Assembly: GCA_964520705.1 (NCBI GenBank)
Contig: CAZFPS010000002.1
Location: 1-50,804 of the forward strand
Length of the DNA stretch: 50,804 bases
Direction of reading: 5' to 3'
Source of the DNA: an uncultured Planctomycetia bacterium
GTDB taxonomy: Bacteria; Omnitrophota; Gorgyraeia; Velamenicoccales; JABMQK01
Positions 2-50,803 of this stretch are shown in pieces. A model generated the notes under the pieces. The model searched no databases and was not told the DNA's origin. It worked only from the letters and a program-made list of their open reading frames with translations. The position numbers were made by a program, and so were the translations under genes. How positions within the stretch are numbered: the stretch's first letter is position 1; each line of letters opens with the position of its first letter.

Positions 2-1627
2 CCCATCAAAGATGAAAATTTGACCAAAGCAATTGAAGAAATTGTGGAAGCAAACGGCACTACTTTAATCCACAGGACACCCGAGAAAATTATTACAGAA
101 TTAGAGGAGAAAGTAGGCGCAAACGACAAGACGCTCAAGGAGCGTGTTGCCTTCTTGAGGGCCGCCATAGAAGAAGCTTATGCGCCAGCCAATAGCGGCA
201 GATACACATTCTATCATGCCTTAGTTGCCATCAGCAATTTCTTGGTTGAGGTTGCCCAGCAGATTGCTAAGAGCGAGAATCATCTTAATGTATATCTGGC
301 AAGAGACGGTATCAACTTCTGGTTAGCCGGTTATCTATGGGCCAAGAAGGAGAACAAATTGTCAGAGTTCAAAGACAATAACGTTATCTTTCACCTCTCC
401 CGTTCACAATTGGGCCATGCCCATGAAGTGATGAAGATGATTGCAGAGGATACTGCTGCTATCGTAGCAAAAGACGATAAAGCAGATTACTGGCAGACCT
501 TTATGAAATATTTTGAGGCTTATGTAAACGAAGATGCAGAATTCAGAACAATTGTAGAAGTAACTGCCAACCGTTTAACTAAGAAGATAAAAGATGCGCC
601 TCAGGTGAGGATTGTGGAAAGCTTTGCCGAAGGCCTCTTAACTGGGTTCTTAAAGGCAGTTATATTAAAGAATAATCCGCAGGCCAATGTTGAGGAATTC
701 ATCACTGCTCCTAAATGGATACCTGAAGCCAAGAGGGGGGTAGCTTCATTCAAGTTCAATGAGAATAAACTTCAAGAAAGAATAGCTGGTTGGTTTGTTA
801 AAGAAGGGTTAGCTGCTCCTGAGCAGATAGAAGTAACATCGTTTGATAAAGTAGACGACAAGAAAGAAGTAACAGGCGCAGATGATAGGAAGCTTGAGAG
901 AAAATATCTTGAGGCTCAGGTTTATCCAATGGATTATCCTTTGGCAGAAGTTAACCTAGGCCATCCCATTGATTCTCGTAACGGCGCCACTGTAAAGTCC
1001 AGTGAAACCAAACAGGAGAGCTTCTATTTAAGACAGCTACTGATCATTAACGCTATCGCAGAAGGTACTTCTTTACCAGTTCGGTTCCCTGCTCCTGCTG
1101 AAGAAAGAAGAGATCTGGTTAACCACTTAGTCTTTACGCATAACGAGATATTTACTACCGTCTCTGATAGTGAACAGCAGGAATTATTGAATAGGCTTAA
1201 CGCTTGGGTAAGGTTAATGAGCCGTGTTTATGGAACAAGCTTTAACAGTGTAGTAGAAGGCATAATTGAATCAGGAAAAGACGCAGTTTATAGATGGCAG
1301 TTCCAGCGCTTCCTATTTGAATTCAGACAGTTTGATACCTTTGAGAACTTTTATGAGACTATGACTTGGGCAGTGGTTTCTACGGCCAAGCCAGAAGCCT
1401 TCTATACCAAACAGCCCACCAAAGACGGTGCTTCTACCTATTACACCTTATTTGATATTGTTAACAGATTAAGAGAAACCAGAGCCATTATCGGTAAGGT
1501 CAGGAGAGATGTTACCAAACACAAGAGAATTAAGATCGCCTACGGCGAAGAAGAGACCAAAGGTGCAGGGGCAACTGCCCGCCAGGCCAAGAAAGATGAT
1601 TTTATAGATTTGGTAGAAAAGTATAAT
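2..1627 (+). other. Module of unknown function, N-terminally cut by the window edge
   Basis: Coherent non-repetitive translation (..RYTFYHALVAISNFLVEVAQQ..VYLARDGINFWLAGYLW..). No motif I can assign. Ends at the first SSSPV linker (1628-1642). Confidence 0.4.
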
Positions 1628-4600
1628 AGCTCAAGCCCTGTCCGTTGGATAGAAACATTGGTTTTGAACCGGAGAATTAAGAAATACATTAATACGGGAG
1701 ATTATTATACAGGAATAGAACTGATGAAAGTTGGCGAGCCAATAATACAGTTACTCATCAGCTATTTGTCAAGAGATTTATACAATGATCAAAGAGAAAG
1801 GGTGATGGAGTTATTAAGTAAGTTAGGAGTTAAACACAAAGAATTAATTCCTGTATATGAGGTTTTATTAAATAATAAATATTGGAACGTAAGAAAATTT
1901 GCTGCGCAACAGTTTGAAGAAATGGATTGCCCAGCTAAACTTATAACTGATCGAGCAATTAAAGCTTTGATTATCTTGTTAGATGATCCTTATGCCAATA
2001 CTGAAGCAGCGAAAGCGTTACAGAAATTAGAGTGGTCGCCAAGGGATCAAGCAGAAAAAGCAATTTATTTGATAGTAAAAGGAGAACTTAGGGAGTTAGT
2101 TAGAACTTATCCTTCTAGAGCTGCGGCAGATTTTCTATTGAAAGCTTTCATGTATTTACCTGGAGATGATAATCGTATCTCGGTAGCAGATGCGATAGCA
2201 GAAACAGGATTTTCTGAAGCAATAGATAAGATGCGATCTCACATGTCGGTTGGTGTTTTGTATCTAATGGGTGATGAAAAAGCAGTGGAGGTTCTAGATG
2301 AAAGATTAGACGTGATTTATTGCGCTAGAGATTACTATCTTGCTTTAAGTATCCAAAATTTAGAAAACCGCCATGGCATGTTGCAGAAAAAATTCCCACA
2401 ATTGCTAAAGAAAGTAGAGAAAATTATATCTAACCGGACATTTAGTTCCGCTCCTTCGGTTTGGCGTGGTCCCTGCCCCAATAATGTTGGGGGGGATGGT
2501 CCCTATCCTGTAGCTTTGTCACAGGAAGAAAGTTTTTCAGGTTTTGATTCTCGCGATATGCGTTCAGAAATACTTTCAGAAGGACGACGGCCAGGTGATT
2601 ATCGCGGTAGAATAGATGATAATTATGCTCAAAAGGTTATTGCTGGTTACGCAAGGAGGGGAAAGGGCGATTCTGAAGAATATGTAGATATTCCTCGCAA
2701 TAACAGGATTCCTTTAAAGATCAATCCAAAAACAGGCGAAGTGTGGCATATTACATGGCAAGAATATGATGCACATATAAATAAACATGTGGATGGAATA
2801 AAAAGTTGTGGTTTAGGCGTATACACTCTGGTAGGGAAGGTCGATGACAATGCCCAAGCAAAAACCAAGGCAATTGTAGAAAAAACTGGAAAAGAAGGAA
2901 GAGTTAAGAAATTTGCCGATTTACCCGAAACCATAAAATCACAAATCCAGTCTCAGGGAATTAGAAGCGCCTTAGAAAAGGCAAATGTCCATATTATTAT
3001 GCCTGAATCAGGTATTGATTCAAGGGCACCTCCGTTCGTCTGGTATGAATCCCGCGATAGATTTGTGGTTGCCTGCACAATTGATGGTAAAGTTTACCTG
3101 CCATTATCACTCGTTAAGCTCGTCATACTTGCCAACGATGAATCTTTAATAGATTCTATATTAGAACATGAACAAAAAGATTTAAGGGAAAGAACAGAAC
3201 ATCCGGAAGAAGGAACTAAGTTAGCCCTGAAAGTAAGAGATTTGGAAGAAGATTTTTATGTTGCCGTTGTCCCTGTGTTTAAGAGCAGAGATGGTAAGGT
3301 TACCTATAAATATCAGCAGGGTGTGCAAGCTTTATTCGGTGGCCGAGTGTCGGAAGAAGCTATATCTATTTGGCAGAATTTTGTAAACGAAGAATTTAAA
3401 AATTCAGGTTTAATTCGTAAAGCTGTTATTGATGGAAGAGTTCAGCTGCTCAGAGGAAAGAAGAGCACTACTTTAATGTTCGTTGCTCCTCGTTCAATGA
3501 TAGTTGAAGGCAGGACCAAAGAAGAGAAAATAAGGAAAGAAGTAGAATTGGCATTGGATAGGGCAACAATTGCATTCATGAAACATTTCGGCGGTGACGA
3601 AGAAAAAGGTATCAAGGGTAGAGACATTAAGGCAGTCGCTACCATGACCACCTTTGCCTTGCCTCGCGATAGCCATACCTTAAAGCAGGTTAGCGATTCC
3701 TTACATGAATTAAGGATTTTACATAGAACTCCTGTTGTGAGCGTACAAGGTAACACCATATTCTACACAACAGCCAAGGAAGTAATTGATAGCACTGATG
3801 AGACGATGGCTAAAGAGGCGGAAAAGAAAGCCAGAGAAGAAAAGGCCGCAGAAGAAGCAGCGAATCCCAGGAAAGAAGAGAAAGAAGAAGTAATCAGGTA
3901 TCAGCTGATTAGCGAAGAGGCCAGCCAGAAATCTATTGAGGTTCTTGCTAAGATCATGGGCCGTAGCAAAGATGTGGCTACCAAGAAAGTCGAGATTTAC
4001 TTAAGCTACTTACAGTGGGCTGCCAGAGAACAATTAGGCACAACCATGGTCAGGCCTCAGGATGTGTTTAGATTAAATGAATTAACTGCAGAAGAGAAGA
4101 CCAAATTACAGGCTGCCGCAAAATACTTTGCCGCAGATGACGAGACCACGGCTTTAATCAATCATTTTGCCGGAGTAAGAACCAATGATGAAGGGATTAT
4201 AGTTGTCTTAAAAGGCGGAGTAAGAGCCGGATTAGAAGCTGAGACCCAGAGCGAAATAGTCAGGACCTTAAGCGATCGATATAATGTTACCCTTACTTCC
4301 CAGATAACCCTTGATCCGGATAGAATAGTTAAGCTTTGGAAAGTCCAGTTAATTAAACAGGTCAAGGCATTGGCTAAGGATAATATTCCTCAGCAGAAGA
4401 TCAACAAGCTTTTGAATCTGCTCAGCGCTAACCAAGGAAAAGCGTTTAAGGAGGCAGTTGATGAATTAAAGGCTGAGTTTACCAGGTCTCAGAAAGTCAA
4501 GGCCTTAGCTTATTCTATTACTTTCTTAAGCGGAAATATCAGGATTGTAAGATTAACCAGAAATAGCACTGAGCAGATTAAGTTAGAAGGCACTGATAGA

Positions 4601-7600
4601 GTAGCGACTATTGAGGAAGTAATCAAGGCGTATACTGAAGCCCTGGATAAGATAGTTGAGGCCAGGTTAGCCGCCAATATGGCCTTAGCGCATACCTTAG
4701 ATGAAGCCAAGAAAGCCGGGCTCACCGAAGAAACCATCAAAGAAGTTGTTTCTGCCTTTGAGTTTGTGGGCGCTGACAGAGTAGAAACAGTATTGGATGT
4801 GCTGAACCAGGAAGAGCGTAATAGGTTAGATAATGGTGAAAATTCTCCTTCAATTGAAAGAGAAATATTAAGAGAATATAAGATAACTGCCGGTGACCAG
4901 ACTGCAGTTGAGGAGTTATATGGAAGATTAGTCACTTTAGGCAATGCAGTAAGGCCGGAAGATACCGCAGCTGTCGCAAGAGACTTAGAAGGTATATTTA
5001 CCGGCACAGCCAATGCCGCAGAAGCCTTTGCGGATTATGCCAGAACCGAGAGATTTTTAACTGCGGTTCCGGAGTTTGCGGAGTTAAGGGATGTCGCTCA
5101 TAGAAGATATCATAGTACCATTACCATGTTTGAGCATAGCTTAATGGGTATCAAGGCTCTTGCTCAGGTAGAAGAAGCAGCGAAGTTAGTCACATTTATT
5201 TCATTGAGCAGCTTAAAAGAGGTAAGGGAAGCTTTGGCTACCGGAAACAGGACTGCAATAGTTATTGAAAATGAGAAACTTCTCAAAGAAAAAATGGAAG
5301 CTTATATCAAGGCAGTGCCTGGACTTAAAGGTATGAGCCGCGAGACATTCATCCAGTTTATCTGGGCATATCAGCAGGCAATTAACATCAGCTTAAAGAA
5401 CGGTAAGAACGCCAAGATGTTTATCTATATGCTTATGCTCTTGCATGATATCGGAAAGGCTGTAACTACCGGCCAGCACTTAAGCTTAGGTAAAGAGCTG
5501 ATCAAGAACGTTATGGAGCGTTTTGGATTTGCTGCCGAAGATATAGAGTTAGCTTCCTTCCTTGTGCTTAACCATAGTGTAAATACCAAGCTTTTGACCG
5601 GTAGCGATACTTATGCGGGTTTTGCTGAGCAGTTAAATAACATAGCCAAGGCAGAAGATAGAGACAGAATCTTGGCAGCGCTGGCTATGATGATAGTTGG
5701 CGATATCGCTGGTATAACTAATCCGGCGATAGCTTTGAATAACCAGAGACTGCTTGAGATATTAGGAATGGTAGTAAATAGAGAGCGCGTAGAAGAGAAG
5801 GCAGCCAATATCGAAGCCCAACTTATTAGTCGCATAGCTATCCAGATGAATTATCAGCCCACTGCTATCGGCGCAGACGAGCAAGTAGTAGCTAAGTTTA
5901 CCAAGGTATTTGAGCTCTTACCTGCTGATTTAAGAATACAGGCGATGGCTATACTTAGCGACAGGACTACCAGCATAGAAGAAAAGATGGATGCAATAGT
6001 CAAAGCTGTGAATGCTTTTGTAGCCGGCTTAGATGAAAACGCCATTAACAAATTCTCCTTACCAGACAGGCCTAAATCTTTGGTTACAGGTGAGTTGAAT
6101 CGTAAAGAATTGGCTGCCTACTTTGTCCAGGCTATTAAAGATGCGCAGTCTGCTGAGGAGTTGGTTCAGATAATCAGTCTCTTATCTATAGGCGCGCAGA
6201 GGAAAGTAGGAGAGGAAACAGCAAATGCAGAATTCTTTGAGACTCAAAGAGCAGTAGTTGCTAAGGCAGTTGAGAAATATTACAATGGCCAGAATGCTTT
6301 GGACAGGATACAGGAAATAAGGGCCGTCGCTGGCATGTATTTTGCCTATCTGTTTAATTCCAAGAAAGTTAAATCCGATAGATTCAGCAGTGTAATTAAT
6401 TTAATTAATGAAATAGAAAATACCAACTCCGGATTCAAGAGCTTCCTGAGCCGCGCGCAATTCAATTACACTGCTATCTTCTTCCAGAAGGCTTCTCCTG
6501 AAGCCATTGTCAACTTCTTGTATCTGGCTTACAGATATTATAGAGATAATAATATTACCGGCGTTCCTTTTATAATCTTATACACTGGTAAAGAAATTAC
6601 GGAGCAGGATATCAAGGTATTAGATATTAAATTAGCCACAGTTAGAATCTGGGAAAGCAATATTACTGATATTGAGGAAGAAGCAAGGGTTTATAGTCTG
6701 TATCCGGCTAACTTCCCGGCTCGCTCTCCTACCATAATTATGCATTTTACCGCCACTGAAGTTCCCTATATAGGTGAGCCATTTACCAGAAAAGAAGGGG
6801 TTATGCCGGAAGTAAAGGTAGAGAACAAACAGCAGGCGGCAACCCAGACCACTGAAGAAATACTGCAGGAAGCAGGATTAAAACTTGGCAATAATGCTGA
6901 GATTGTGGTCGTAAGTAAAGAAGGCAAGAAGCTTACGGCTGTTTTCGCTGCAGCTTTCGCAGGCGCACTCAAAGATGAGACAGGCAATGCAAGAGAATTA
7001 AGCGGCAGGATATTAATTGATGTAGATAAACAGTTCATCTGGTTAAGAGACAGCAAAGAAATATTTATCTTGGACGGTGAGGTGTTGGGTGGTGAGTTAA
7101 AGAGCTTTGTTGTACCTGAAGACCTGATTGCAAAGTTGGCTTATCTTGGCAAAGCAGATGTCCTTAAGGAAATAACGGAATTATTAAAGAAGGCCGATGA
7201 TGAATTATACAAGAAATTAGCAGTAGCAGCGTTGTTCATTCCTGGGTTAAAGAAAATTATGGAAGAGACAGCATTCTATCATAAAGAGTATGTCAATAGC
7301 CATATCAAGGTTCTTGAGGCTGCGCTTAAGGATTATATGAACGTATTGACTACCGGACAGTTAATACCTATGCCGTTGAATTTGGAGGATGAAAAGAAAG
7401 AAGAAGTTAAAGAAGTAAAGCTCGTTTACCCGGCAAAATTCGTAGAAATTTCTGCATTTAAGCCAGAGCAGGAAGGTGATCTTAGAAAAGCCTTGGCGGT
7501 TTTAAAATTAGACGGTTCTACTCGTAGTAAAGTGGATGCTATCTTAAATGACCAAGGCAAAGATTTTGAAGGTAAAAAGAAAGATATCAAAGAAGCCATT

Positions 7601-43600: not shown

Positions 43601-46600
43601 AGCGAAGTTCGGACCGAGGCAGTAGTGTTGATGGCTAAAGATTTAACCGAAAAAGAAAACATAGCCAGCCTGATGGTTTTATTTACTAGGATGATGGAGG
43701 TTTATAGAGGAGTAAACTCCAGCTCGCCGGTTGAGGAAAAAAGAAGTGCTTTCGATTCTTTGATTGTTTGTATGGATAAATATACTCGAAATTATTTATT
43801 CAATGTCTTAACCCTTGGTGTGATGGCCGGGATATTCTTAGGATTAGGTTTATATCCTGAAAAAATAGCCAGCGGACAAGCCAGCGGTTATTTGAATATA
43901 TGGCTAGAGGCAGTCAGGACGACTATTTTTAATATAGAGGTTTTGTGGAAGACATTCGTTGGGTTTTTTGTTTTTGGGGTCATGACGGATTATTTAGCCA
44001 AGCGTACTAATAGAGAGGAGTATTCTTGGAAGGCCTTTAAAGGGGCCACAATGTATGCCTTATTGAAGTTTCTTATTGTGCCGGCATTCTTTATCGCGAT
44101 TGCTCCGTTTAATAAATTTGTGCGTGGTTTTATTTCAGGGCTCTTGCTTAGTTACCTTCTTTTAAATATCCGGGCAAAGACATTTTATACCAAGCATCAG
44201 AACGGAAATGCGGGAGTGTTAAAGACCCAGCGCGCATATGAGATGTATTGGTTGACGCGCCTATGGATTTTTGGACAGAACTTTATTGTGCAAATTCTCT
44301 TTCCCATTGAACGTAGGGCGTTAGCAAATGTTATTATTTCGCAGTTACATTCCTTATATAACAGTTATGGGTTGCATGAACAGAAGGCTTCGCTGATTGA
44401 AAGACAAGATTTAATGGAGTCAATTAGACGGTCACTCTTTATAAAATGGCTCAGGAATGTCCAAAACGGCATAGAAGGTTTAACATCCGTTAAGCTTGGT
44501 AGGCCATGGGATAATTCGGCAGCGCTGTTGGTACATGGTCTTGTTGCGCCGTTCACTTTATTAGCAAATAAATTGAATGCAAGGCTACGGATTGCACGTA
44601 TTTCCAGGCTGGGAGAGAAAGATGAAGGTACCGCCAATTTTAGCATTAGTTCCATCCCAGAGGTAATCAAAGATTTAAAGCAAGGCAGGATGATTATTAT
44701 AGTTGATGATGCAAATCGTGAGAATGAGGGCGATCTTATGATTGCCGCCCAGAAGATTACTCCTGAGGCAATCACTTTTATGGCTAAAGAGGCAAGCGGG
44801 CTTATCTGTATGCCTATGGAGGCTAAGAGATTGGATGAGTTAAAGATTGGGCTGATGTTTAAGGGGAGCGGTGACAAGCAGGGAACCGGGTTTACGGTTT
44901 CTGTTGATGCCAGAGAAGGGACCACTACCGGCATCTCTGCCTCTGATCGCGCTCAGACAGCTAAGGTTTTGATTAATCCAGCAACTAAGCCTGAAGACTT
45001 AAACCGTCCCGGACACATGTTTCCTCTGCGGGCCAGAGAGGGAGGGGTGTTGGAAAGAGCCGGACATACCGAGGCCTCAGTTACTTTAGCAAAATTAGCC
45101 GGCCTTTATCCGGCAGCGGTAATCTGTGAAATTATGAACGAAGATGGGACTATGGCTCGCCTGCCGCAGCTGGTGGAGTTCTCCAAAAAGTATAATCTAA
45201 AGATTGCTACTATAGCTGATTTAATTAAATATGTATCCGGCGCCACTTCTAGCTCACCGGTTGATAAAGACAAGAAGAATATAGAACCGTCCCCGATTTT
45301 ACAAGATTCTAAAAAGTTCTCTGTTCCGCTTACTCGGCTGATCGGAGAGTTGCAGAAAGAGCGCGCGATGGTTTGTTCTATCCAGTCGCGGTGGGAGCCG
45401 GCAGTAGCGGTAACAATTTTCGGAAGCGCGCGTATTTCTGAAGAAGATCCTTACTACCAAATCGGCGTTAATTTGGGAAGAGCTATATATAACCACGGTA
45501 TGGTTATTCGCACAGGCGCAGGCCCGGGAATGATGGATGCGCCATTCAGGGGGTATATAGAAGCCAGGGAATCTTCGGGCGTAGAAAAAACAGAAGAAAA
45601 TGCAACTCAAGGCGTAAGAATCACTCTTCCTTTTGAACAAGAAGCTTCTCCTTACTGCGAAGATATCCTGACATATTCTCACTTTATTAACCGTAAATTA
45701 GCTCTTTGTGAAAATATTATAGGAACTATTGTTTTGCCGGGCGGCTTTGGTACGATAGATGAATTATTCGAGAGTTTGCTTAGAGGCGTGCCGACAGTTC
45801 TTTTAGTCAAAAGTTACTGGCAGCCGATTATGGATGCTTTTGAGGAGAGTTGGGCGAGGGGCTCTTTACAGAAGAATATCGGACTGCGGTTTTTAATTAC
45901 AGATTCTATCGGAGAGGCCTTAGCGCACATCAAGAGTAACGCGCAGAATATTGAACTTATTAAGCCCGACCAAAATAAACTGGGGCAGGACAATAAGGAG
46001 ATTGAAGAAGGCCTGTTGCGGCTTAAGGGTTTACCGCCGACAGTTACCTTTGTCGGCCGGCCAGGAGAAGATTACTTTGGATTAGATATTGTTGGAGAAA
46101 TAGCCTTCCGCCTCTTGTCCTATGGTATCGCTATTCGTACAGCCAGCCGCGATGTATTATTCAAGCGGCTTTTAAAAACTACTCAGGATAATCATAAACT
46201 TAATTTACTGCAAGCTACTATTTTCTTGCCGGAAAAAGATATTCCTCTGACCGTAGAAGAACTAAGTTTAGGCAGGAATCTTATAGTTATCCAGGATATC
46301 TTTAACCATCAGGTTTTGATCACTGAAAATTCTTTGGGTTTTGTGTTTCTGCCCGGCGGGATAGGCACATTAAATAAATTATTTGATATACTCTGCGTAA
46401 TGCAGACGGGAAAAGTGTCCCGTAGGCCCATTGTGCTCATCGGTGGGGAATTCTGGCAGCCCATAAAGGATGCCATTGTAAATGCTACTCTATTTCGCTC
46501 GCCACCTTTGATTTCCGCGGGAGATGAGAACTTAATGCGTATTGTTGATACAACAGAACAGGCTTTGGAGATTTTAGGATTAGAACAGATTGCTAGTTCG

Positions 46601-49600
46601 CCGGTAGATCAAGGTATTGAGTCTCAAGATTTAGGAGAGTTAGGGTATATCGTTAGAAACATTCTAAGATATAAAAGAGCAAAGGCTGTAAAAGAAGATA
46701 AAAAAGGAAGATTGAATGCGCCTCAGCTTTTAGTAATAGCAATGTCCTTGTCGGTTATACTTAATAAAGAATATAAGCTAATTGAAGATATTGTTTTTAA
46801 AGAATACAGCCGTTTGTTGGATGAAGGAAAATCTGGATCAAGTCCTATACGGGCTTATCCTTTGAATGTCCCGGCGGCCGAGCAGAAAGAGGCATCAGTT
46901 AAATTTGGAGCGGATTTATTTGTCAGGTTATCTTTTATTCTCTATGGCAACAATTATGAAATAACTTTAAGCGAAGGACAAATGCACAAGGAGTGGGAAG
47001 AGGATTTAAGGGATTTAGCCTATAATTTATCTTCAAAGATTCGCGGCCCTCCTAGAAAACTTACCTTTTACATTTCTACTGATATAGAATTTACCGATTA
47101 CAGCGTTGCCGTAAGATTAACCGCAACCCACATAGTCCTGCACCCGTATTTCTTTAATCTATTCTCTGACTGTAAAAAGATCTGGCAGACTGAAATAATC
47201 CTAGATCTGCTGAATAAAAAATCAAAATCTTCATCTCCTCTGGGCTCCATAGTCAACACCTTTACCTCCAGCTCCCCCATCCAGCATCAGCTCGTCATCG
47301 ACCTTGTTTCTAATCAAATCATTCAGCGGCCTTCGGTTACCGGCAAGCGCATCTTGCGTAAAGAAGGCATTAGCGAAGGTATGGTTCTTGAGGGTATTGC
47401 TAACGGAACACTCAAGCTAATCTCTGAAAAAGCTTTTATCGAATCTTTAGATAGGTCTACTACCGGTATTGGTATCTCAGGCGGCGGCGACTGCGCCGGT
47501 ATAGCTGACTTCTTCCGTTCTTTAAGGTATAATCTAAAACCTGAATTAACCATGCTCGGTGTCAGGAATGCCGGTGAAGGCTTAATGGATAAAGACTTCT
47601 TAAGCAAGCTAATCTTAGTTGACCCTCTTTTAGCTGAAGACTTCCTCGGCCAATCCTCTACTCCCTACGGCTCTTCCCGCGAAGATCCTTTAAAAAAGAA
47701 TAAAGAAACCACGCAAAGGAATCTCTCCGGTTTTAAATTCTTCTATGGCACCGGCGGTAATGATCATTTAGGCCTCTTAGAGCGCTTCTCTCGATTGCTT
47801 CCAGAATTAGTGGTAGTAGGGACTTTTAAAAGTATTGATGGTGATGGTTGGGTTGCCGGCAGGCCTGCTCAGATGCTGGGTTTTTACACTGCAACCGGAG
47901 TTTACCAAAGGCAGCTTTGGGCAATTACCCAGAACGCCTATACTCATCAGCAGCGGCATGTGGTTGAGACTTTTGGCCGGGGTTGCGGCAAACTTGCCTA
48001 TGCTTCAAGCCGCAGATATCCAGAGAATTTTAATACACTCTCCAAAGAAGAGCAGCGTAAAATTATTGAATTCCGCGACCTGGTAATGATTATCGTTCCT
48101 GAAAAACCTACTTCTTTGCGTTCCATTGCCCAGGAAGCCAAAAGGATTAAGCAAGAACAGGGTGGAGTAGTGGTGGTAGTAGCCGAGGGTTTTATGCCTC
48201 CAGAATTAAAATCAGAGATCATCAGGCTTGGTTTAGATGAATCATTAAGAGACCGCTGGTTCAGGCATGACCTTCCTGTTGAAAGTATCTCTAGCCTTAT
48301 CCACAAAGAAGGAAGAGAGTCTCCGACTGATGACTTAAGTCTCATGCTTCAAGATCCGGAATTAGCTGCTCAATTTGCCAAGACCACCTGGCAGGCTAAA
48401 TTTGACCCCCATGGCAATGTCACTAAACTCGCTGGAATCACAAACTTCATCATCAAGGCCTTAGAAGTATTGGGCGGCGCTACTAAAGTCAACAGAGTCC
48501 TCTTTAATTACGGAGCCAGAGACGCTACCCCGGATGCTTATGATATTCATATGGGGGAAAAGATCGGTGTTGTCGCAGCGCAGCTTATTAATGACAATGT
48601 CATTGGCGGTAAAGCCGTAGTTTATTTTGAAGGGATGAATCCTAAAGAAGAAGAGCCTGAAGTTGTAGACTTAGTAGGTGTATCCGATAAGAACAACCTG
48701 AATAATCCGGACCTTTATACTGAAGAAGAATTAATTAAGAATGGAGTGTATTGGGAGAAAAAGACCAGCTCACCGGTAGTTCGAGATAACGCAGAGATGC
48801 TACAACTAATCTTTAATTTATTTAATTATTTTGACTGTCAGAATAAAATTCTTAGGCAACAGGTTTTATCTTTAAATAGGCCATTGAGTTTAGATGGGGA
48901 AGAGCCTGGTTACCTCGGGTATATTCCTTATGCTTATTATTATACTGATATTTTATATCTTATCTGGCGGTATTCCTCTTATCTAAATAAACAGCAAGAG
49001 ATAAAGGCCTTGGAGATTGGTTCAGGCGCAGGATGGTTCCTGTTGTTCCTTAAGGCCTTAAAAGAAAAGCCTCTAAAAGATAATCTGCGGCTGGAAGAAT
49101 TCCAGAAAAAGTTAATGAATATGGAATACGATAGATGGTTTAAAAAATTAAAAAGGCTGCTAGAAAATATGGAGTTTGAGGGGATTGATATTAATCTATA
49201 TCTTTGCCGCTTTGCCCAATGGAGAGGATTAAATGTATTAAATGCCGATATCTTGAATCCTCCTGTTTTAGATCATTACGACCTTACTTTTAGTGAAAAT
49301 GTATTAGATCTTTTGCAGGTTAATGGAAAGTTGTTTAAGCCCTATAACCCCGAAGCCAGCTTTGAATTAGGGAAAGAAGCATTGGTGAGGATCAGCCAAT
49401 TGACTAAGGCTGGAGGCTTAAGCATCCATACTTCTGATTTTGGCTTTCCTCTTAGAAGGGAAAGTATTAAAGAGTCTGGTTTTGAAATTTTAGAAGGCGA
49501 TCCGGCAGGAAGGATTCTTGTACTTCGTAAGGGTTACTCCAGCTCACCGGCGGAAAGAGATTTATCTTCGGCGATAAGCGTCTTCTCTAGTGTCTACTCC

Positions 49601-50803
49601 ATCTATGACAATGCTTTTGCCTACAAGATAAAAACAGATACGGTATTTTCCTACTCTGAATCTGTGAGTGGCGGGAGGCAGGTTAACGAGAGGTTTGGCA
49701 AAATACAAGGGTTTACCGGAAGAAATATAGAGGCCAATTTTTTCTATAATGCGTTTTTTCAGCGGGAGAGGAAGCTTTTTAAATTCCCGTTCGCCGGCAG
49801 GAGCAAACTCAACTTTGGTAAGCATAGCAAGATTCAGGACAGCCCTAATTTATGCTTAATTTTATCAAAGGACACCAACCCCAGCGTTTGGGCCTCCACA
49901 ATGCCTTTCTTTAATCTTAAGGCTAGCTTAGGGTTAATCGGCAGGCGTTCTTCAATTCCATCAATAAGCCAGCCAACAGGATTATGGAAGACGTACTCTT
50001 TAGCGGGAGCGGATTCCTCAAATTTAGCGTCAAACGCGCAGAGGAGATCCCATAGGGAGCCCGTATCAAAGATAAAATATTTAGGGGCGCCGTTTTTATC
50101 CACAACTGCCGCAGCCTTAAAATTCTTAAGTTCCGATTTCTTAAATTCTTTAGGAATAGCCGCAAATTTCTCAATGGGCTCTACTTTGACAAGTTCTTTA
50201 ACTGATAACTTAACTAATGATTTTGATCTCATTTTTTCGCTCCCCTCTATTTTTAAGCAGTATAACACATTCTTTTTTAATCTGTCAAGCCCGATATCGT
50301 TAACGAATACACCTGATTCTTTACTGGCAAAGTCAACCTGCTTCAGCTTGACGGTACGAGGCATGGCTGATAGTGGGTTTTTATTTTTACCTTTGCGGAA
50401 AGCGCTTTCGTTGTATAGCCATATTTTACGTAATCCCAAACGCACTAGCTCTCCGGTGGAGGCGAGGACGTCAGAAGATATTCTTAAGGATATTCTTAAG
50501 GCGAGGCAGAGAGCGCATGAGTACTCACAGGAATTATTGAGTCACCAGCAGGATACGCCTGCGGCCGGGCCGAATGCTTATAAAGTTATCCATAAGGATT
50601 CTTTGAGAGCGCTTGAGGCAGCGCGGGCTTACTTACAGGAACTTTTAAATTGTCCGCAAGATATATCTTTACAGCTAAAGCAGCTGGATGAATTAGGCTT
50701 ATTGGTTGAACTTTACTCATCCCAAACCCCGAAGAAAGAAGCCAGCTCGCCGGTAGGTAAAGAGGCGATTGCCGAGATGATGCTGCGAGAAGACGTAAGA
50801 GGA
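2..50803 (+). CDS. Single giant multi-enzyme ORF, open at both window edges (16,934 codons); chain of ~40 enzyme-like modules separated by SSSP[V/I/A] linkers
   Basis: Frame-2 translation read end to end shows no TAA/TAG/TGA. Every recognisable catalytic motif in the window lies in this frame: HAD DxDG, GT2 DAD/QCGFK, Nudix box, HxHxQ, ROK DxGGT, PGI SKSGxTDET, PFK, RibB, LOG PGGxGT, HPr GLHTR. The supplied ORF track lists no + strand frame-2 ORF ending inside the window, as expected if the frame never closes. Confidence 0.9.
1700..2300 (+). other. HEAT/PBS-lyase-like helical repeat region
   Basis: Helical repeats such as ..YWNVRKFAAQQFEEM.. and ..ITDRAIKALIILLDDPYANTEAAKALQKLEW.. resemble HEAT_2-type repeats. 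Pattern recognition only. Confidence 0.35.
5100..5715 (+). other. HD-superfamily metal-dependent phosphohydrolase-like domain
   Basis: ..MFEHSLMGIKAL.. then MLMLLHDIGKAVTTGQHLSLGKEL..FLVLNHS..MIVGDIAG. This gives the H..HD..H..D arrangement. The HD dyad codons are at 5444-5449. Confidence 0.55.
7798..8340 (+). other. Conserved domain of unknown function preceding GT2 (copy 1)
   Basis: ..SQAFQLVINDIFAHAALYKEGKDKWAVFADRAEKYFKYHPEE..CYLTLLRIN... Closely similar at nucleotide level to 13922-14458. Confidence 0.5.
8351..9240 (+). other. GT-A fold family-2 glycosyltransferase domain (DPM1/ALG5/GpgS-like), copy 1
   Basis: IKIAVIVGMHKEKSRL..NPNGEDS..IDWELIFVAHVNSPDNSGKVV..LYTDADVTVD (DAD near 8729-8740)..ETQCGYKAY (9011-9025)..FSFDTELMHL. 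Confidence 0.7.
9413..11290 (+). other. Large conserved module (copy 1): nucleotide-sugar-enzyme-like N-half and hexapeptide (left-handed beta-helix-like) repeats near the C-terminus
   Basis: ..RIAVFHDAGSAKRCSTLSQSQNGTRADLRILG.. resembles the G-rich loop of NTP-transferases. ..ISGIYIRNSIIRNSTIKEGNIINSVVSDSLIAKL.. has 6-residue periodicity. The family is not identified with certainty. Confidence 0.35.
11291..12049 (+). other. HAD-IA beta-phosphoglucomutase-like domain, subtype A, copy 1
   Basis: [26 protein letters not shown] (motif I); [12 protein letters not shown] (II); GKPDPDIF (III); LEDAVKGVKA (IV). Confidence 0.75.
12113..12880 (+). other. HAD-IA beta-phosphoglucomutase-like domain, subtype B, copy 1
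   Basis: [57 protein letters not shown]. Confidence 0.75.
12893..13702 (+). other. HAD-IA beta-phosphoglucomutase-like domain, subtype A, copy 2
   Basis: [71 protein letters not shown]. Confidence 0.75.
13922..14458 (+). other. Conserved domain of unknown function preceding GT2 (copy 2)
   Basis: ..SQAFQLVINDIFAHAALYKEGKDKWAVFADRAEKYFKYHPEE..CYLTLIRIN... Paralogue of 7798-8340. Confidence 0.5.
14459..15350 (+). other. GT-A fold family-2 glycosyltransferase domain, copy 2
   Basis: KIKISVIVGMHKEKSRL..NPDGEDS..IDWEFIFVAHVNSPDNSGKVV..LYTDADTTVD (14846-14857)..ETQCGFKAY (15122-15136)..FAFDTELMSL. Confidence 0.7.
15524..17338 (+). other. Large conserved module (copy 2) with hexapeptide-repeat-like C-terminal part
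   Basis: Paralogue of 9413-11290: ..RIAVFHDAGSAKRCSPLSQSQNGTRADLRILG.. and ..IGNVYLKNSIVTNSNITEGNVINSVISDSVITKL... The stretch 16101-16210 is almost identical to 10041-10150. Confidence 0.35.
17339..18160 (+). other. HAD-IA beta-phosphoglucomutase-like domain, subtype B, copy 2
   Basis: [57 protein letters not shown]. Confidence 0.75.
18161..18988 (+). other. HAD-IA beta-phosphoglucomutase-like domain, subtype B, copy 3
   Basis: [56 protein letters not shown]. Confidence 0.75.
19150..19960 (+). other. GT-A fold family-2 glycosyltransferase domain, third, more divergent type
   Basis: KIKVWVVFAVYNELSRI..NPHGEDA..LDWRLVMVDNRSPDKTSEV..GYTDCDITT (19526-19540)..DTQCGFKFF (19741-19756)..WAFDTEWLLL. 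Confidence 0.7.
20264..20620 (+). other. Nudix hydrolase domain
   Basis: GAVSKGEKAIAAGMREFGEELGI at 20450-20518 fits the Nudix box GX5EX7REUXEEXGU exactly. Upstream is ..HHASAYVIVKAPSGKIYLQLRG... Confidence 0.75.
21152..22144 (+). other. HIT-superfamily, GalT/Ap4A-phosphorylase-branch nucleotidyltransferase-like domain
   Basis: CILC at 21461-21472; ..VVNKIPWATYHMLLMS..; ..ASIPHFHLQFF with H-x-H-x-Q at 21704-21718. Confidence 0.55.
22352..23155 (+). other. HAD-IA beta-phosphoglucomutase-like domain, subtype A, copy 3
   Basis: [71 protein letters not shown]. Confidence 0.75.
23156..24108 (+). repeat. Direct repeat copy 1 (953 bp), apparently identical to 25121-26073
   Basis: Same sequence at an offset of 1965 nt. 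The shadow ORFs 23464-23706 and 25429-25671 translate identically. The repeat starts at tcctcctcccccata and ends at tcatcgcctgt. Confidence 0.85.
23168..24097 (+). other. HAD-IA beta-phosphoglucomutase-like domain, subtype C (long cap insertion), copy 1
   Basis: [57 protein letters not shown]. Confidence 0.7.
24690..25060 (+). other. GHKL / HATPase_c-like ATPase domain (no DHp His seen upstream; anti-sigma-type Ser kinase-like)
   Basis: IHEIFSNAVKHGNS (N-box-like); ISDEGRS; LRGAGLGIYKAG (G2-like); GTEVTIVKYL. Confidence 0.55.
25121..26073 (+). repeat. Direct repeat copy 2 (953 bp), apparently identical to 23156-24108
   Basis: See copy 1. Bounded by SSSPI (25121-25135) and GSSPV (26063-26074). 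Confidence 0.85.
25133..26062 (+). other. HAD-IA beta-phosphoglucomutase-like domain, subtype C, copy 2
   Basis: Amino-acid sequence identical to 23168-24097. Confidence 0.7.
28140..28760 (+). other. Uridine kinase / phosphoribulokinase-family P-loop kinase domain
   Basis: RVIIGFMGPSSAGKTTFVKML (Walker A, 28161-28200); LGLDSYLHD; ILIMDITCLG; RLQRRLERDTR. Confidence 0.6.
28829..29590 (+). other. HAD-IA beta-phosphoglucomutase-like domain, divergent subtype A, copy 4
   Basis: [57 protein letters not shown]. Confidence 0.65.
30205..31030 (+). other. HAD-IIB (phosphomannomutase / Cof-type phosphatase-like) domain
   Basis: VVIADMDETLTPSRS (DxDxT); VILSSSD; GGTTSIDIGLINAKGNAI; YFGDSFDLSGNDTPV. 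Confidence 0.6.
31097..32060 (+). other. ROK-family sugar kinase (glucokinase-like) domain
   Basis: MLAIGVDLGGTKISAAAV; GIGIAAPGILD; YDATAAALGEAVFG; YMSIGTGIGSGII; MLGGGV. Confidence 0.7.
32591..33540 (+). other. Second ASKHA/ROK-like sugar-kinase-fold domain (divergent)
   Basis: LFIGINIGSTYTRCSVI; GIGIGTVGMV; MDNKVAALGERFGIG; LGTAMAGKMI; AVAIGAAYMA. Confidence 0.5.
34360..34800 (+). other. Udk/PRK-like fold with degenerate Walker A (possible pseudokinase)
   Basis: VIVRIDGRPGNRKSHSISLL replaces GxxGxGK[ST]. It is followed by YKVILVEGTII and FTVYIESIEQRRMEYL, matching the layout of 28140-28760. Confidence 0.35.
36250..36440 (+). other. PurM/AIR-synthase-superfamily N-domain-like fragment
   Basis: ISILGLPTGPSVGIDLLQDFLASMVEATDAIGIPIVGGHTVEN. 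Confidence 0.3.
36500..37560 (+). other. Selenophosphate synthetase (SelD)-like PurM-superfamily domain
   Basis: FRAQGCAAKYPP (Cys codon 36545-36547); DDQSSIAFTVDIIKPIVNSSKLFSRIAVVHATSDLYAKG; ASTDVTGFSLIGHL; DAQTSGGMLIS. Confidence 0.6.
37700..38520 (+). other. Histidine-kinase core (DHp-like H-box plus HATPase_c), no sensor domain evident
   Basis: LTEALHDIKNKFIAVNGFMSLF (His codon 37748-37750); LDEALYNAWKYG; IEGSGIGLAAIKRNCDLIGG. Confidence 0.55.
38600..39260 (+). other. Cytidylate kinase-like domain with altered P-loop
   Basis: [36 protein letters not shown] follows the Cmk N-terminal pattern, but GSGRR replaces GSGK[ST]. Confidence 0.45.
39665..39961 (+). repeat. 99-aa helical module, copy 1 (paralogue of 50456-50752)
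   Basis: VEARAPKDILKDILKARQEAYEYSRELLSHQQDTPAVGPNAYK..LQELLNCPQDISLQLKQLDELGLLAEL... Bounded by SSSPV and ASSPA. Confidence 0.8.
39992..40240 (+). other. HPr (phosphocarrier protein)-like domain
   Basis: KIIITSRLGLHTRVAVGIAKIV (His codon 40031-40033); ANAESIMQLLALAAGYGDSVVIEVRG (Ser46-like site). Confidence 0.65.
40616..41287 (+). other. Integral-membrane module, about 6 predicted TM helices
   Basis: Hydrophobic ~20-aa stretches: ISFIPAVCIVISWFSG, FLSGLAIAGIVGGIA, WIIAGVAFNGLIGFGLWFWF, LIDLTAYTIIVVLPINFLI, LYWGPALFIGWTFW, IVLIAANMTVIWSGILIYLLDLWI. Confidence 0.6.
41330..43700 (+). other. pgi: Glucose-6-phosphate isomerase (SIS/PGI) domain with large insertions
   Basis: ISGIGIGGQT; WVVGSKSGSTDETMVNF (41711-41740); GPAEQHKSFQLTSGG (about 43398-43440). 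Confidence 0.65.
43790..44310 (+). other. Second integral-membrane module, about 4-5 predicted TM helices
   Basis: FNVLTLGVMAGIFLGLGLY, FVGFFVFGVMTDYL, ALLKFLIVPAFFIAIAPF, FISGLLLSYLLLNI, LWIFGQNFIVQILFPI. Confidence 0.55.
44650..45235 (+). other. ribB: 3,4-dihydroxy-2-butanone-4-phosphate synthase (RibB) domain
   Basis: [117 protein letters not shown]. Confidence 0.85.
45400..45950 (+). other. LOG-family (TIGR00730-type) domain 1
   Basis: VTIFGSARI; GMVIRTGAGPGMMDA; IVLPGGFGTIDELFE (PGGxGTxxE, 45737-45775). Confidence 0.7.
46035..46580 (+). other. LOG-family domain 2 (more divergent)
   Basis: GFVFLPGGIGTLNKLFD; RRPIVLIGGEFWQPI. Confidence 0.55.
47330..48740 (+). other. pfk: 6-phosphofructokinase (PfkA-family) domain
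   Basis: GIGISGGGDCAGIADF; FFYGTGGNDHLG (47747-); VVGTFKSIDGDG; ETFGRGCGKLA; VVVVAEG. Order and spacing match the PfkA motifs. The phosphoryl donor (ATP or PPi) cannot be called. Confidence 0.65.
48900..49520 (+). other. Class I SAM-dependent methyltransferase domain
   Basis: ALEIGSGAGWFLLFL (motif I, 49010-); FEGIDINLY; YDLTFSENVLDLL; LTKAGGLSIHTS. Confidence 0.55.
49562..49825 (-). CDS. RelE/ParE-family type II toxin, antisense inside the giant ORF
   Basis: 87-aa ORF. ..EREFKKLPLPLKKRIIEKI..THRFRVGKYRICFYLVGKSIVIDGVDTREDAY fits the RelE/ParE pattern (RvGdYRiiY..v.hR.eaY). It starts 8 nt after the partner ORF. The + strand turns pyrimidine-rich here, unlike the rest of the window. Confidence 0.75.
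   Translation of the reverse strand: MLTKVEFAPAGEREFKKLPLPLKKRIIEKIGLYISSGKPLYFAKPLVNLPPATHRFRVGKYRICFYLVGKSIVIDGVDTREDAYRRR
49834..50232 (-). CDS. Putative cognate antitoxin (132 aa, Phd/YefM-like core)
   Basis: ATG at 50232 is preceded by GGGGAG (7-nt spacer) and a sigma70-like promoter. ..KNFKAAAVVDKNGAPKYFIFDTGSLWDLL.. resembles the Phd/YefM core. It lies directly upstream of the toxin in the usual operon order. Confidence 0.6.
   Translation of the reverse strand: MRSKSLVKLSVKELVKVEPIEKFAAIPKEFKKSELKNFKAAAVVDKNGAPKYFIFDTGSLWDLLCAFDAKFEESAPAKEYVFHNPVGWLIDGIEERLPINPKLALRLKKGIVEAQTLGLVSFDKIKHKLGLS
50240..50245 (-). promoter_or_regulatory. Shine-Dalgarno site for the antitoxin
   Basis: The minus strand reads GGGGAGcgaaaaaATG. 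Confidence 0.6.
50259..50288 (-). promoter_or_regulatory. Sigma70-type promoter driving the antisense toxin-antitoxin operon
   Basis: The minus strand reads cTTGACAgattaaaaaagaatgTGtTATACTgc. The -35 TTGACA is at 50283-50288, the spacer is 18 nt, and the extended -10 TGnTATACT has its -10 at 50259-50264. Confidence 0.6.
50456..50752 (+). repeat. 99-aa helical module, copy 2 (paralogue of 39665-39961)
   Basis: VEARTSEDILKDILKARQRAHEYSQELLSHQQDTPAAGPNAYK..LQELLNCPQDISLQLKQLDELGLLVEL... Roughly nine in ten nucleotides match copy 1 by eye. Confidence 0.8.

Follow-up and report, generated by a model that had tools for sequence, protein, structure and literature searches.

Giant open reading frames (ORFs), from 20 kb to >400 kb in length, are documented as common in the Omnitrophota. 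Most Velamenicoccia and Omnitrophia genomes have ORFs of >20 kb, and V. archaeovorus LiM encodes a protein of 39,678 amino acids (aa) (PMC10066038). West-Roberts et al. (2023) described giant proteins of up to 85,804 aa, including an "Archaeovorin" type rich in transferases, NUDIX, HAD_2, and Lysine_decarbox domains, and judged cleavage of the giants to be likely, with the cleavage points unknown (bioRxiv 10.1101/2023.11.21.568195). Giants of up to 147,155 aa have also been reported, together with a "multi-enzyme metabolic cluster" class carrying HAD, ROK, HATPase, NUDIX, HIT, and HEAT domains, and the existence of giant ORFs of this class has been confirmed with complete long-read genomes (bioRxiv 10.64898/2026.06.07.730766). 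The thresholds applied in published work are 20 kb, 10 kAA, or 90 kb. The central question for the Omnitrophota giants is whether each gene yields one megadalton chain or many products and, in the latter case, where the chain is cut. Here we describe a 50,804-nucleotide (nt) stretch of bacterial DNA (contig CAZFPS010000002.1 of assembly GCA_964520705.1, positions 1 to 50,804 of the forward strand; "the window" below) that is an internal slice of one such ORF, and a short peptide, S-S-S-P-[V/I], that recurs at the borders of the encoded units and may mark the points at which the chain is cut.

Judged from its domain content, the window fits the known "Archaeovorin/multi-enzyme metabolic cluster" class. 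Like the described Omnitrophota giants, it has a single frame of tens of kilobases in which many enzyme Pfam families, among them HAD, ROK, NUDIX, Lysine_decarbox/LOG, HATPase, methyltransferase-like, and HEAT, tile the chain, some of them repeatedly, with scattered transmembrane (TM) segments and poor sequence conservation outside known domains. The N-terminal C39/S8 peptidase and the SecA_DEAD-like domains known from full-length giants were not found in the window; both ends of the ORF, N- and C-terminal, lie outside it. Published accounts of the giants report no motif between modules (bioRxiv 10.1101/2023.11.21.568195; bioRxiv 10.64898/2026.06.07.730766; PMC10066038). The S-S-S-P-[V/I] punctuation, the duplications bounded by it, and a nested antisense toxin-antitoxin cassette are reported here for the first time.

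RESULTS

One open frame spans the window

The window is indeed part of a single, very large bacterial gene. Frame +2 passes both window edges and contains no stop of any kind in 16,934 codons, which exceeds the 10,000 uninterrupted codons used to define a giant ORF. The five other frames have 582 to 1,804 stops each and longest open stretches of 63 to 235 codons (six-frame translation), and an open frame this long at a G+C content of ~40% is far beyond chance. In a sliding scan, the codon-usage log-odds score of frame +2 was clearly the highest in every 600-nt interval save those at 49.8 to 50.4 kb, and the coding strand is purine-rich throughout. tRNA and Rfam scans found no tRNA gene and no Rfam family in the whole window. 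Pfam scans, run on overlapping 1,000-aa pieces and on individual units, placed at least 20 distinct families on the chain and detected no dominating adhesin repeat and no RTX toxin, nonribosomal peptide synthetase/polyketide synthase, or dockerin domains. These results bear out much of the first-pass annotation of this DNA, which had proposed a domain-rich internal slice of a single ORF of >16,900 codons, running off both edges without stops and distinct from adhesins, RTX toxins, and peptide or polyketide synthases. Its view that bacterial ORFs of this size are very rare is not supported by the published record on the Omnitrophota summarized above.

A strict peptide motif lies between the encoded units

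In an unbiased scan of the translation, the most over-represented tripeptide was S-S-P, which occurs 35 times against 2.5 expected (P ~1e-27). The residue that follows is V, I, A, or L in 35 of 35 cases, and positions -2 to -4 are rich in K. None of the 35 junctions falls inside a Pfam-matched stretch (P ~8e-5 under random placement). Typically, HAD, HPr, and PMM-like domains start 3 to 25 aa after a junction, and RibB, LOG, ROK, and HATPase_c_2 domains end 9 to 16 aa before one, so that a short conserved peptide is found at the borders of complete functional units, as in polyproteins. A single copy (nt 50285; aa 16,762) lies inside the antisense read-through described below and is probably there by chance. 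Nothing relevant was returned when the literature was searched for the motif or for "polyprotein" in the Omnitrophota.

Since both AGY and TCN codons are used for the junction serines and all four proline codons are present, the motif is conserved at the level of the peptide. At least three nucleotide subfamilies are nevertheless discernible. About 13 junctions from nt 32084 on (e.g., those at nt 37634, 39656, 43721, 48767, and 49541) have the subconsensus TCCAGCTC[GA]CCGGT, in which TCG, otherwise the rarest serine codon, is used together with CCG; other junctions read TCCTCCTC[TC]CCCAT or AGCTCAAG[CT]CC. Rare codons are over-used at the motif (TCG, 31% versus 7% overall; CCG, 43% versus 22%). 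The nucleotide subconsensus could reflect common descent of the junctions, microhomology in cassette exchange, or a translational pause.

Four junctions are double (nt 25073 to 25135, 47231 to 47281, ~12050 to 12115, and ~26880 to 26953) and enclose a conserved hydrophobic mini-peptide of 13 to 17 aa, [LIF]G[AST][LI]V..[ST]ST..SSP. The one at nt 25073 to 25135, with 17 aa, reads SSSP-LGALVVLISSTKD-SSSP. These mini-peptides resemble the spacer peptides of polyproteins.

Duplications begin and end at junctions

The translation had been described as non-repetitive, and this proved wrong: it contains at least 11 HAD modules (including a PMM-like one), a duplicated block of ~3.7 kb, a 313-nt repeat, and a perfect 953-nt direct repeat (coordinates in Table 1). 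The perfect repeat runs from the first serine codon of an SSSP to the GT of the valine codon after the next SSP. Its copies lie 1,965 nt apart, and their identity collapses directly outside it; the cassette was either copied very recently or homogenized by gene conversion. The two copies of the 313-nt spacer module are 89% identical, and in a mismatch map their similarity starts and stops at junction motifs. Similarly, the HAD-A paralogues begin at the proline codon of their junctions. The duplication of blocks A and B is more diverged, with 55 to 74% protein identity in a self-BLASTP comparison and 72 to 81% DNA identity at a spacing of ~6.1 kb, apart from one 113-nt piece (repeat D17) at 95%; block A includes a weakly glycosyltransferase-2-like paralogue family. 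A repeat scan of the window found no inverted repeats or palindromic structure.

Because the repeats are bounded by junctions, the junction-to-junction unit is the unit of duplication and rearrangement. Either a short shared junction sequence could be used in recombination, or only events of this kind could survive. Since both duplications and insertions have junctions as their end points, the junctions hint at the way in which such genes grow.

Some relatives of the window carry the same or a different motif

The nearest relatives of three different parts of the window, as ranked by sequence similarity, are fragments of Omnitrophota metagenome-assembled genomes (MAGs). A genome-collection scan returned a single relative, a 5,308-nt contig from such a MAG (JBDRLN010000077.1; L001 below), which is open along its whole length in a single frame of 1,769 codons and is 69% identical over the phosphofructokinase (PFK) unit. 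Six S-S-S-P-[VIL] sites are present in the 1,769 aa of L001, in which the tripeptides SSS and SSP are the two most strongly enriched. L001 retains the orthologous junctions at both ends of the PFK unit as well as the double junction with its 13-aa hydrophobic spacer (SSSPLGSLVNTLGRASSSPV, aa 1398 to 1416), which reads SSSP-LGSLVNTLGRA-SSSP-V in L001 and SSSP-LGSIVNTFT-SSSP-I in the window. The unit that follows PFK is starch-synthase-like in L001 and methyltransferase-like in the window, and module order differs between the two. The second relative (P0001) is a 751-aa partial protein of Candidatus Omnitrophica with a PFK and a starch-synthase domain (74% identity), and the third (P0063) is a homologue of the toxin described below.

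Two partial Omnitrophota proteins, P0113 (3,550 aa) and P0166 (919 aa), have several unit types in common with the window. On the P0113 contig (JAPLLZ010000019.1), nt 1 to 1954 form an open stretch of at least 643 codons in a different frame, which runs off the contig start and ends just before the ATG of P0113; either it belongs to a second large gene next to that of P0113, or a frameshift interrupts a larger ORF. With aa 1881 to 2880 of the window as the query, a protein search found no match and did not even return the protein of the window itself, and a scan of viral contigs found no relatives.

Two metagenome contigs from ENA (NODE_3668 and NODE_12376; L090 and L091), which represent a more distant relative, contain window-like units (NTP-transferase-like units plus HAD arrays, and ROK) organized as separate genes of 1 to 7 kaa, each with a stop, a Shine-Dalgarno sequence, an ATG start, and a hydrophobic N terminus. 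S-S-P is absent from them. Inside their genes they carry K[AS]xSAG instead (11 copies versus 0.03 expected) in the equivalent position, e.g., 5 aa ahead of the DxDG motif of HAD. That the two lineages each have a strict motif, and not the same one, is the pattern expected of a recognition site that coevolves with its reader.

An antisense toxin-antitoxin cassette is nested between two junctions

In a single region, between the junctions at nt 49,541 and 50,447, another frame outscores frame +2 in codon usage; two adjacent ORFs occupy the minus strand there. Only short ORFs had been noted outside frame +2, which is literally true, but these two are a RelE/ParE toxin gene and its antitoxin gene; both the pair and the junction motif escaped the first-pass annotation. 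The toxin has 53 homologues with identities of up to 80%, nearly all of 82 to 105 aa (three of 48 to 65 aa are probably partial). Several, in Omnitrophota MAGs, bear the name RelE/ParE, and PF05016 is present in some; P0063 is 77% identical. A look-up of the toxin sequence returned no exact match. The toxin also aligns end to end, as a weak match, with PDB 3g5o_B (Rv2866/RelG; E = 0.0018). Searched directly against Pfam and NCBIfam, neither protein had a match, and the antitoxin had no family match in any scan run. The antitoxin gene lies 8 nt upstream of the toxin gene in the same orientation, and the same cassette is free-standing in six other loci of varied contexts (among L082 to L088), with a first protein of 134 to 143 aa, a gap of 5 to 8 nt, and a toxin of 87 to 88 aa. 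A small homologous toxin and an adjacent co-oriented partner in a two-gene cassette are two of the marks of RelE/ParE systems. Homology and gene arrangement suggest that the nested ORFs are real genes that form a complete predicted RelE/ParE cassette, apparently a functional one. The cassette resembles type II RelE/ParE toxin-antitoxin systems in the 87-aa toxin type, the small upstream partner 8 nt away, and a predicted promoter and Shine-Dalgarno sequence. It differs from them in lying wholly inside, and antisense to, an open frame and in having an antitoxin of no recognized family. Gene callers that accept the giant ORF would hide these nested genes.

The giant frame reads through the cassette for ~300 aa without a stop. 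Over the coding part of the cassette, the equivalent antisense frame is stop-free in three of the six free-standing cassettes; when the 216-nt upstream flank is included, it has 1 to 11 stops in all six, versus none in the window. We take this as modest evidence that the continuity of the giant frame is maintained. In the free-standing cassettes (L082 to L088), the antisense frame aligned with the toxin codons has 0 to 4 stops over the coding part, and the other two antisense frames have 15 to 29 stops over cassette plus flank. The cassette may be able to sit in an open frame because the toxin-aligned antisense frame is unusually poor in stops. One free-standing cassette (L083) has a neighbor encoding 3,269 aa, which we considered as a parallel and rejected, since it is unrelated and lacks the SSP motif.

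The junctions as candidate cutting sites of a proposed polyprotein

Taking motif, domain borders, and duplications together, we are about evenly divided as to whether the gene is translated as a polyprotein that is cut, or at least hinged, at its junctions, and we favor this reading over those considered below. It agrees with the suggestion of West-Roberts et al. that giants are processed. The frame comprises ~35 cassettes joined in frame by (K-rich)-S-S-S-P-[V/I] and would be translated into one polyprotein. The junction peptide would serve as the recognition site at which a dedicated protease, encoded elsewhere in the ORF or the genome, cuts the chain into separate enzymes; in a minimum version, it would be a defined hinge between units that fold independently. 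Cassettes would be duplicated, moved, and replaced at junctions, one of them by the antisense toxin-antitoxin insert, and the gene would grow by these events. Membrane units and the ~300-aa nonsense unit read from the toxin-antitoxin region, each bounded by junctions, stand between cytosolic enzymes, and such interleaved units would be easier to tolerate if the units were separated.

An analogy exists with the polyproteins of picornaviruses, potyviruses, flaviviruses, and nidoviruses, which are cut at short conserved sites by a cognate protease and likewise have many units per frame, units separated by a short, strict peptide that is specific to the lineage and contains many small residues, membrane units amid soluble enzymes, and short spacers between double sites. 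The window differs in being a cellular gene for metabolic enzymes that is 5 to 50 times longer and whose cutting is putative; the analogy is one of mechanism and not of homology. More tentatively, and with clearly less confidence than we have in the reading of the window itself, we suggest that the Omnitrophota giants as a group may be true cellular polyproteins, in which dozens of core-metabolism enzymes would be cut out by a dedicated protease at a lineage-specific peptide (S-S-S-P-V/I here; K-A-x-S-A-G elsewhere), the junctions would also be the seams for cassette duplication, shuffling, and capture, and the antisense toxin-antitoxin insert would be read through and then discarded. If true, this would be a gene organization and expression mode so far known only from RNA viruses.

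The junction peptide provides the first concrete, testable candidates for the cutting sites of these giant proteins. It predicts exactly that peptide termini at ...SSSP|V/I... should be present in metaproteomes, and it offers a rational way to split the giants into units for structure prediction. Co-occurrence with the motif type, in turn, gives a handle for finding a responsible protease.

Several observations weigh against a polyprotein. Pfam scans of the 16.9 kaa encoded by the window detected no peptidase family. A candidate for a built-in protease, the HE[WV][IT]E[CH]F domain at aa 9115 to 9135 (~nt 27350, module 17), which recurs in P0113 and P0166, could not be assigned: it had no PDB sequence match, its AlphaFold model was of low confidence (pLDDT 53), and its Foldseek hits were meaningless (best E value, ~0.9). 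The more distant Omnitrophota fragments P0113 and P0166 have no significantly enriched motif, and the placement of the window in the Omnitrophota comes from best hits only. The subconsensus shared by ~13 junctions means that conservation could partly reflect descent or DNA-level processes. Furthermore, in units of 2,591, 1,823, and 1,159 aa several enzymes follow one another with no motif between them, and junction-homologous positions have lost the motif in paralogues; thus, the motif is not needed between every pair of domains. Separately, we noticed a second domain that reads NDIFRHETVH (HExxH) in P0113 and NDIFAHAALY in both of its window copies (~nt 7,850 and 13,980). On the basis of these short motifs, it is possible that the two domains are remnants of zincin-like peptidases.

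The strongest competitor, which we consider a real but distinctly less probable possibility, is an uncleaved mega-enzyme or scaffold in which the motif acts as a hinge, as a site of serine phosphorylation or O-glycosylation, or as a cotranslational pause. The lack of a protease in the window is in its favor, and the motif is rich in serine and proline, as are many interdomain linkers. The giant protein of V. archaeovorus, moreover, has been proposed to form a coat (PMC10066038). However, plain linkers normally vary, yet S-S-P-[VIAL] is retained at 35 of 35 junctions, and a distant lineage has a motif that is different but just as strict; the alternation of membrane units and a nonsense unit with cytosolic enzymes likewise speaks against a single assembly. 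The over-used TCG and CCG codons would fit a translational pause, but their bias is largely explained by one nucleotide subfamily of junctions. Eukaryotic fusions such as AROM, CAD, and fatty-acid synthase are precedents for such a scaffold and resemble the window in placing complete enzymes of related pathways in one chain at fixed stoichiometry. These fusions have 3 to 7 domains, variable linkers without a common motif, and an uncleaved chain, compared with at least 35 units and a strict motif in the window.

It is improbable, in our estimation, that the motif is only the scar or site of DNA-level recombination, by microhomology or by a site-specific system, with the peptide itself functionless. 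Repeat boundaries do fall exactly at junctions, including those of the perfect 953-nt copy; AGCTC[AT]CCGG[CT]GGA flanks the toxin-antitoxin insert on both sides; TCCAGCTC[GA]CCGGT is common to ~13 junctions; and module order differs between the window and L001. Across all junctions, however, the peptide is invariant and the codons are not (AGY and TCN serines, four proline codons, and the three or more subfamilies). The restriction of the following residue to V, I, A, or L in all 35 cases and the lack of inverted repeats or palindromes also argue against it. Recombination at junctions can, in any case, coexist with a function of the peptide instead of replacing it.

Less probable again is a stop-less operon, in which the units are made separately by internal initiation, mRNA processing, or peptide-bond skipping at the motif. 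Comparable units in L090 and L091 are indeed separate genes with their own Shine-Dalgarno sequences and ATG codons, and some junction versions contain GGAGG-like strings. However, a Shine-Dalgarno sequence plus an in-frame start within 30 codons after the junction was present at 3 of the 35 junctions, versus 2.8 at random, and the first methionine is often >40 residues past the junction. The window has no Rfam family or ribozyme. In L090 the punctuation motif lies within the separate genes, so a junction is not the same as a gene border, and the complete lack of stops over 50.8 kb implies selected read-through translation. Finally, a chimeric or collapsed assembly or a decaying pseudogene array has a negligible chance of accounting for the data and is excluded for the frame as a whole, since, although a perfect 953-nt repeat with copies 1,965 nt apart is a feature that assemblers mishandle, chimeric joins or decay would bring stops and frame changes, of which the 16,934 codons contain none, the frame has a uniform coding signal, the independent contig L001 has the same architecture and motif, and giant ORFs of this class are confirmed on complete long-read genomes.

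Enzyme modules along the chain

The features of the window are listed in Table 1. From their Pfam assignments, most cassettes are predicted to act on sugar phosphates or nucleotides, and each appears to be a complete enzyme or a small enzyme group. The PFK unit corresponds to a whole free-standing enzyme: it is 50 to 58% identical over ~95% of its length to PFKs of 446 to 582 aa, whose C termini fall within ~12 aa of the downstream junction and whose N termini fall within ~20 to 30 aa of the upstream one. Large parts of the chain had no family match in Pfam, including aa 1 to 2,500 and a block of ~1,250 aa that is present twice, and only weak matches to glycosyltransferases (E = 0.008) and methyltransferases (E = 0.28) were obtained. 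Several units without known relatives accompany two membrane units. A simple hydropathy scan located nine hydrophobic segments, all in the latter two (aa 13,539 to 13,762 and aa 14,577 to ~14,880).

Table 1. Features of the window (nt positions; +, strand of the giant ORF)
Feature	Position (nt)	Strand	Basis or remark
Giant ORF, internal slice, open at both ends	2-50803	+	16,934 codons, 0 stops
S-S-P-x codon starts	1631, 9404, 12104, 12884, 13706, 15515, 18992, 21143, 22148, 22343, 23159, 24098, 25073, 25124, 26063, 26942, 30134, 32084, 32165, 37634, 39656, 39953, 40607, 41279, 43721, 45251, 46595, 46838, 47231, 47270, 48767, 49541, 50285, 50447, 50744	+	
First junction motif	1631-1642	+	
HEAT-repeat stretch, subthreshold	1748-2020	+	PF13646, 23.6 bits versus gathering score 27.7
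HD-domain stretch, subthreshold	5423-5578	+	PF01966, E=3.5e-4, 21.3 bits versus gathering score 22
Block A (aa 2566-3823), units without Pfam match, running into HAD module	7697-11470	+	Paralogue of block B
HAD hydrolase module	11291-11950	+	PF00702/PF13419, up to 238 bits; paralogy by self-BLASTP
Other HAD modules	About 12125-12745, 12893-13714, 17348-18151, 18194-18823, 22400-23080	+	PF00702/PF13419
Block B (aa 4611-5846)	13832-17539	+	Paralogue of block A
NUDIX domain	20336-20569	+	PF00293, E=9e-7
DUF4922/Ap4A-phosphorylase-like (HIT/GalT-like) domain	21437-21721	+	PF16269, E=5e-7
Perfect 953-nt direct repeat, copy 1 (one HAD cassette)	23156-24108	+	
Further HAD modules	About 23174-23956, 25139-25921, 28832-29500, 30215-30931 (PMM-like)	+	PF00702/PF13419
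HATPase_c_2 (anti-sigma-kinase-like ATPase) domain	24707-25045	+	PF13581, E=7e-8
17-aa mini-module between two junctions	25082-25132	+	
Perfect 953-nt direct repeat, copy 2	25121-26073	+	100% identical
ROK-family sugar kinase, variant junction SASPV before it	31106-32044	+	PF00480, 143 bits
FGGY_N-like sugar-kinase domain	32597-32830	+	PF00370, E=1.8e-7
AIR-synthase-related N and C domains (PurM/ThiL/SelD-like)	36251-37534	+	PF00586, PF02769
HATPase_c, then cytidylate-kinase-like domain	38231-39259	+	PF02518, E=1e-9; PF02224, E=8e-6
99-aa helical spacer module, copy 1, junction-bounded	39650-39962	+	Repeat D5
HPr (phosphotransferase system phosphocarrier) domain, start 14 aa past junction	40001-40234	+	PF00381, 57 bits
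Membrane module, ~5 hydrophobic segments, exactly one junction-to-junction unit	40616-41287	+	Kyte-Doolittle scan
Hydrophobic (TM-like) region opening RibB module	43730-44641	+	Kyte-Doolittle scan
RibB (3,4-dihydroxy-2-butanone-4-phosphate synthase), end 9 aa before junction	44660-45232	+	PF00926, 285 bits, full profile length
Two LOG/SLOG (Lysine_decarbox) domains, end 11 aa before junction	45407-46570	+	PF18306, PF03641
Second mini-module, SSSP-LGSIVNTFT-SSSP	47240-47278	+	
PFK module (whole free-standing PFK)	47279-48775	+	50-58% identity
Weakly methyltransferase-like module	48776-49549	+	Only PF13649, E=0.28
Giant frame reading through toxin-antitoxin cassette	49550-50455	+	S/F/L-rich, no homologues
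RelE/ParE-family toxin gene (87 aa), nested antisense	49562-49825	-	Homologues and PDB match
Antitoxin partner gene (~132 aa), nested antisense	49834-50232	-	Assigned by position and conservation
Promoter-like site TTGACA-18-TGtTATACT, then GGGGAG and ATG at 50232	50259-50288	-	Consensus match only, 11/12 positions
Spacer module, copy 2, right after toxin-antitoxin cassette	50441-50753	+	
Last junction motif in window, EASSPV	50744-50755	+	

The RibB domain is 55 to 67% identical to ordinary RibB genes (metagenome scan). It lies behind a hydrophobic region of ~300 aa in one unit (nt 43730 to 45232), an odd arrangement for a cytosolic enzyme of the riboflavin pathway.

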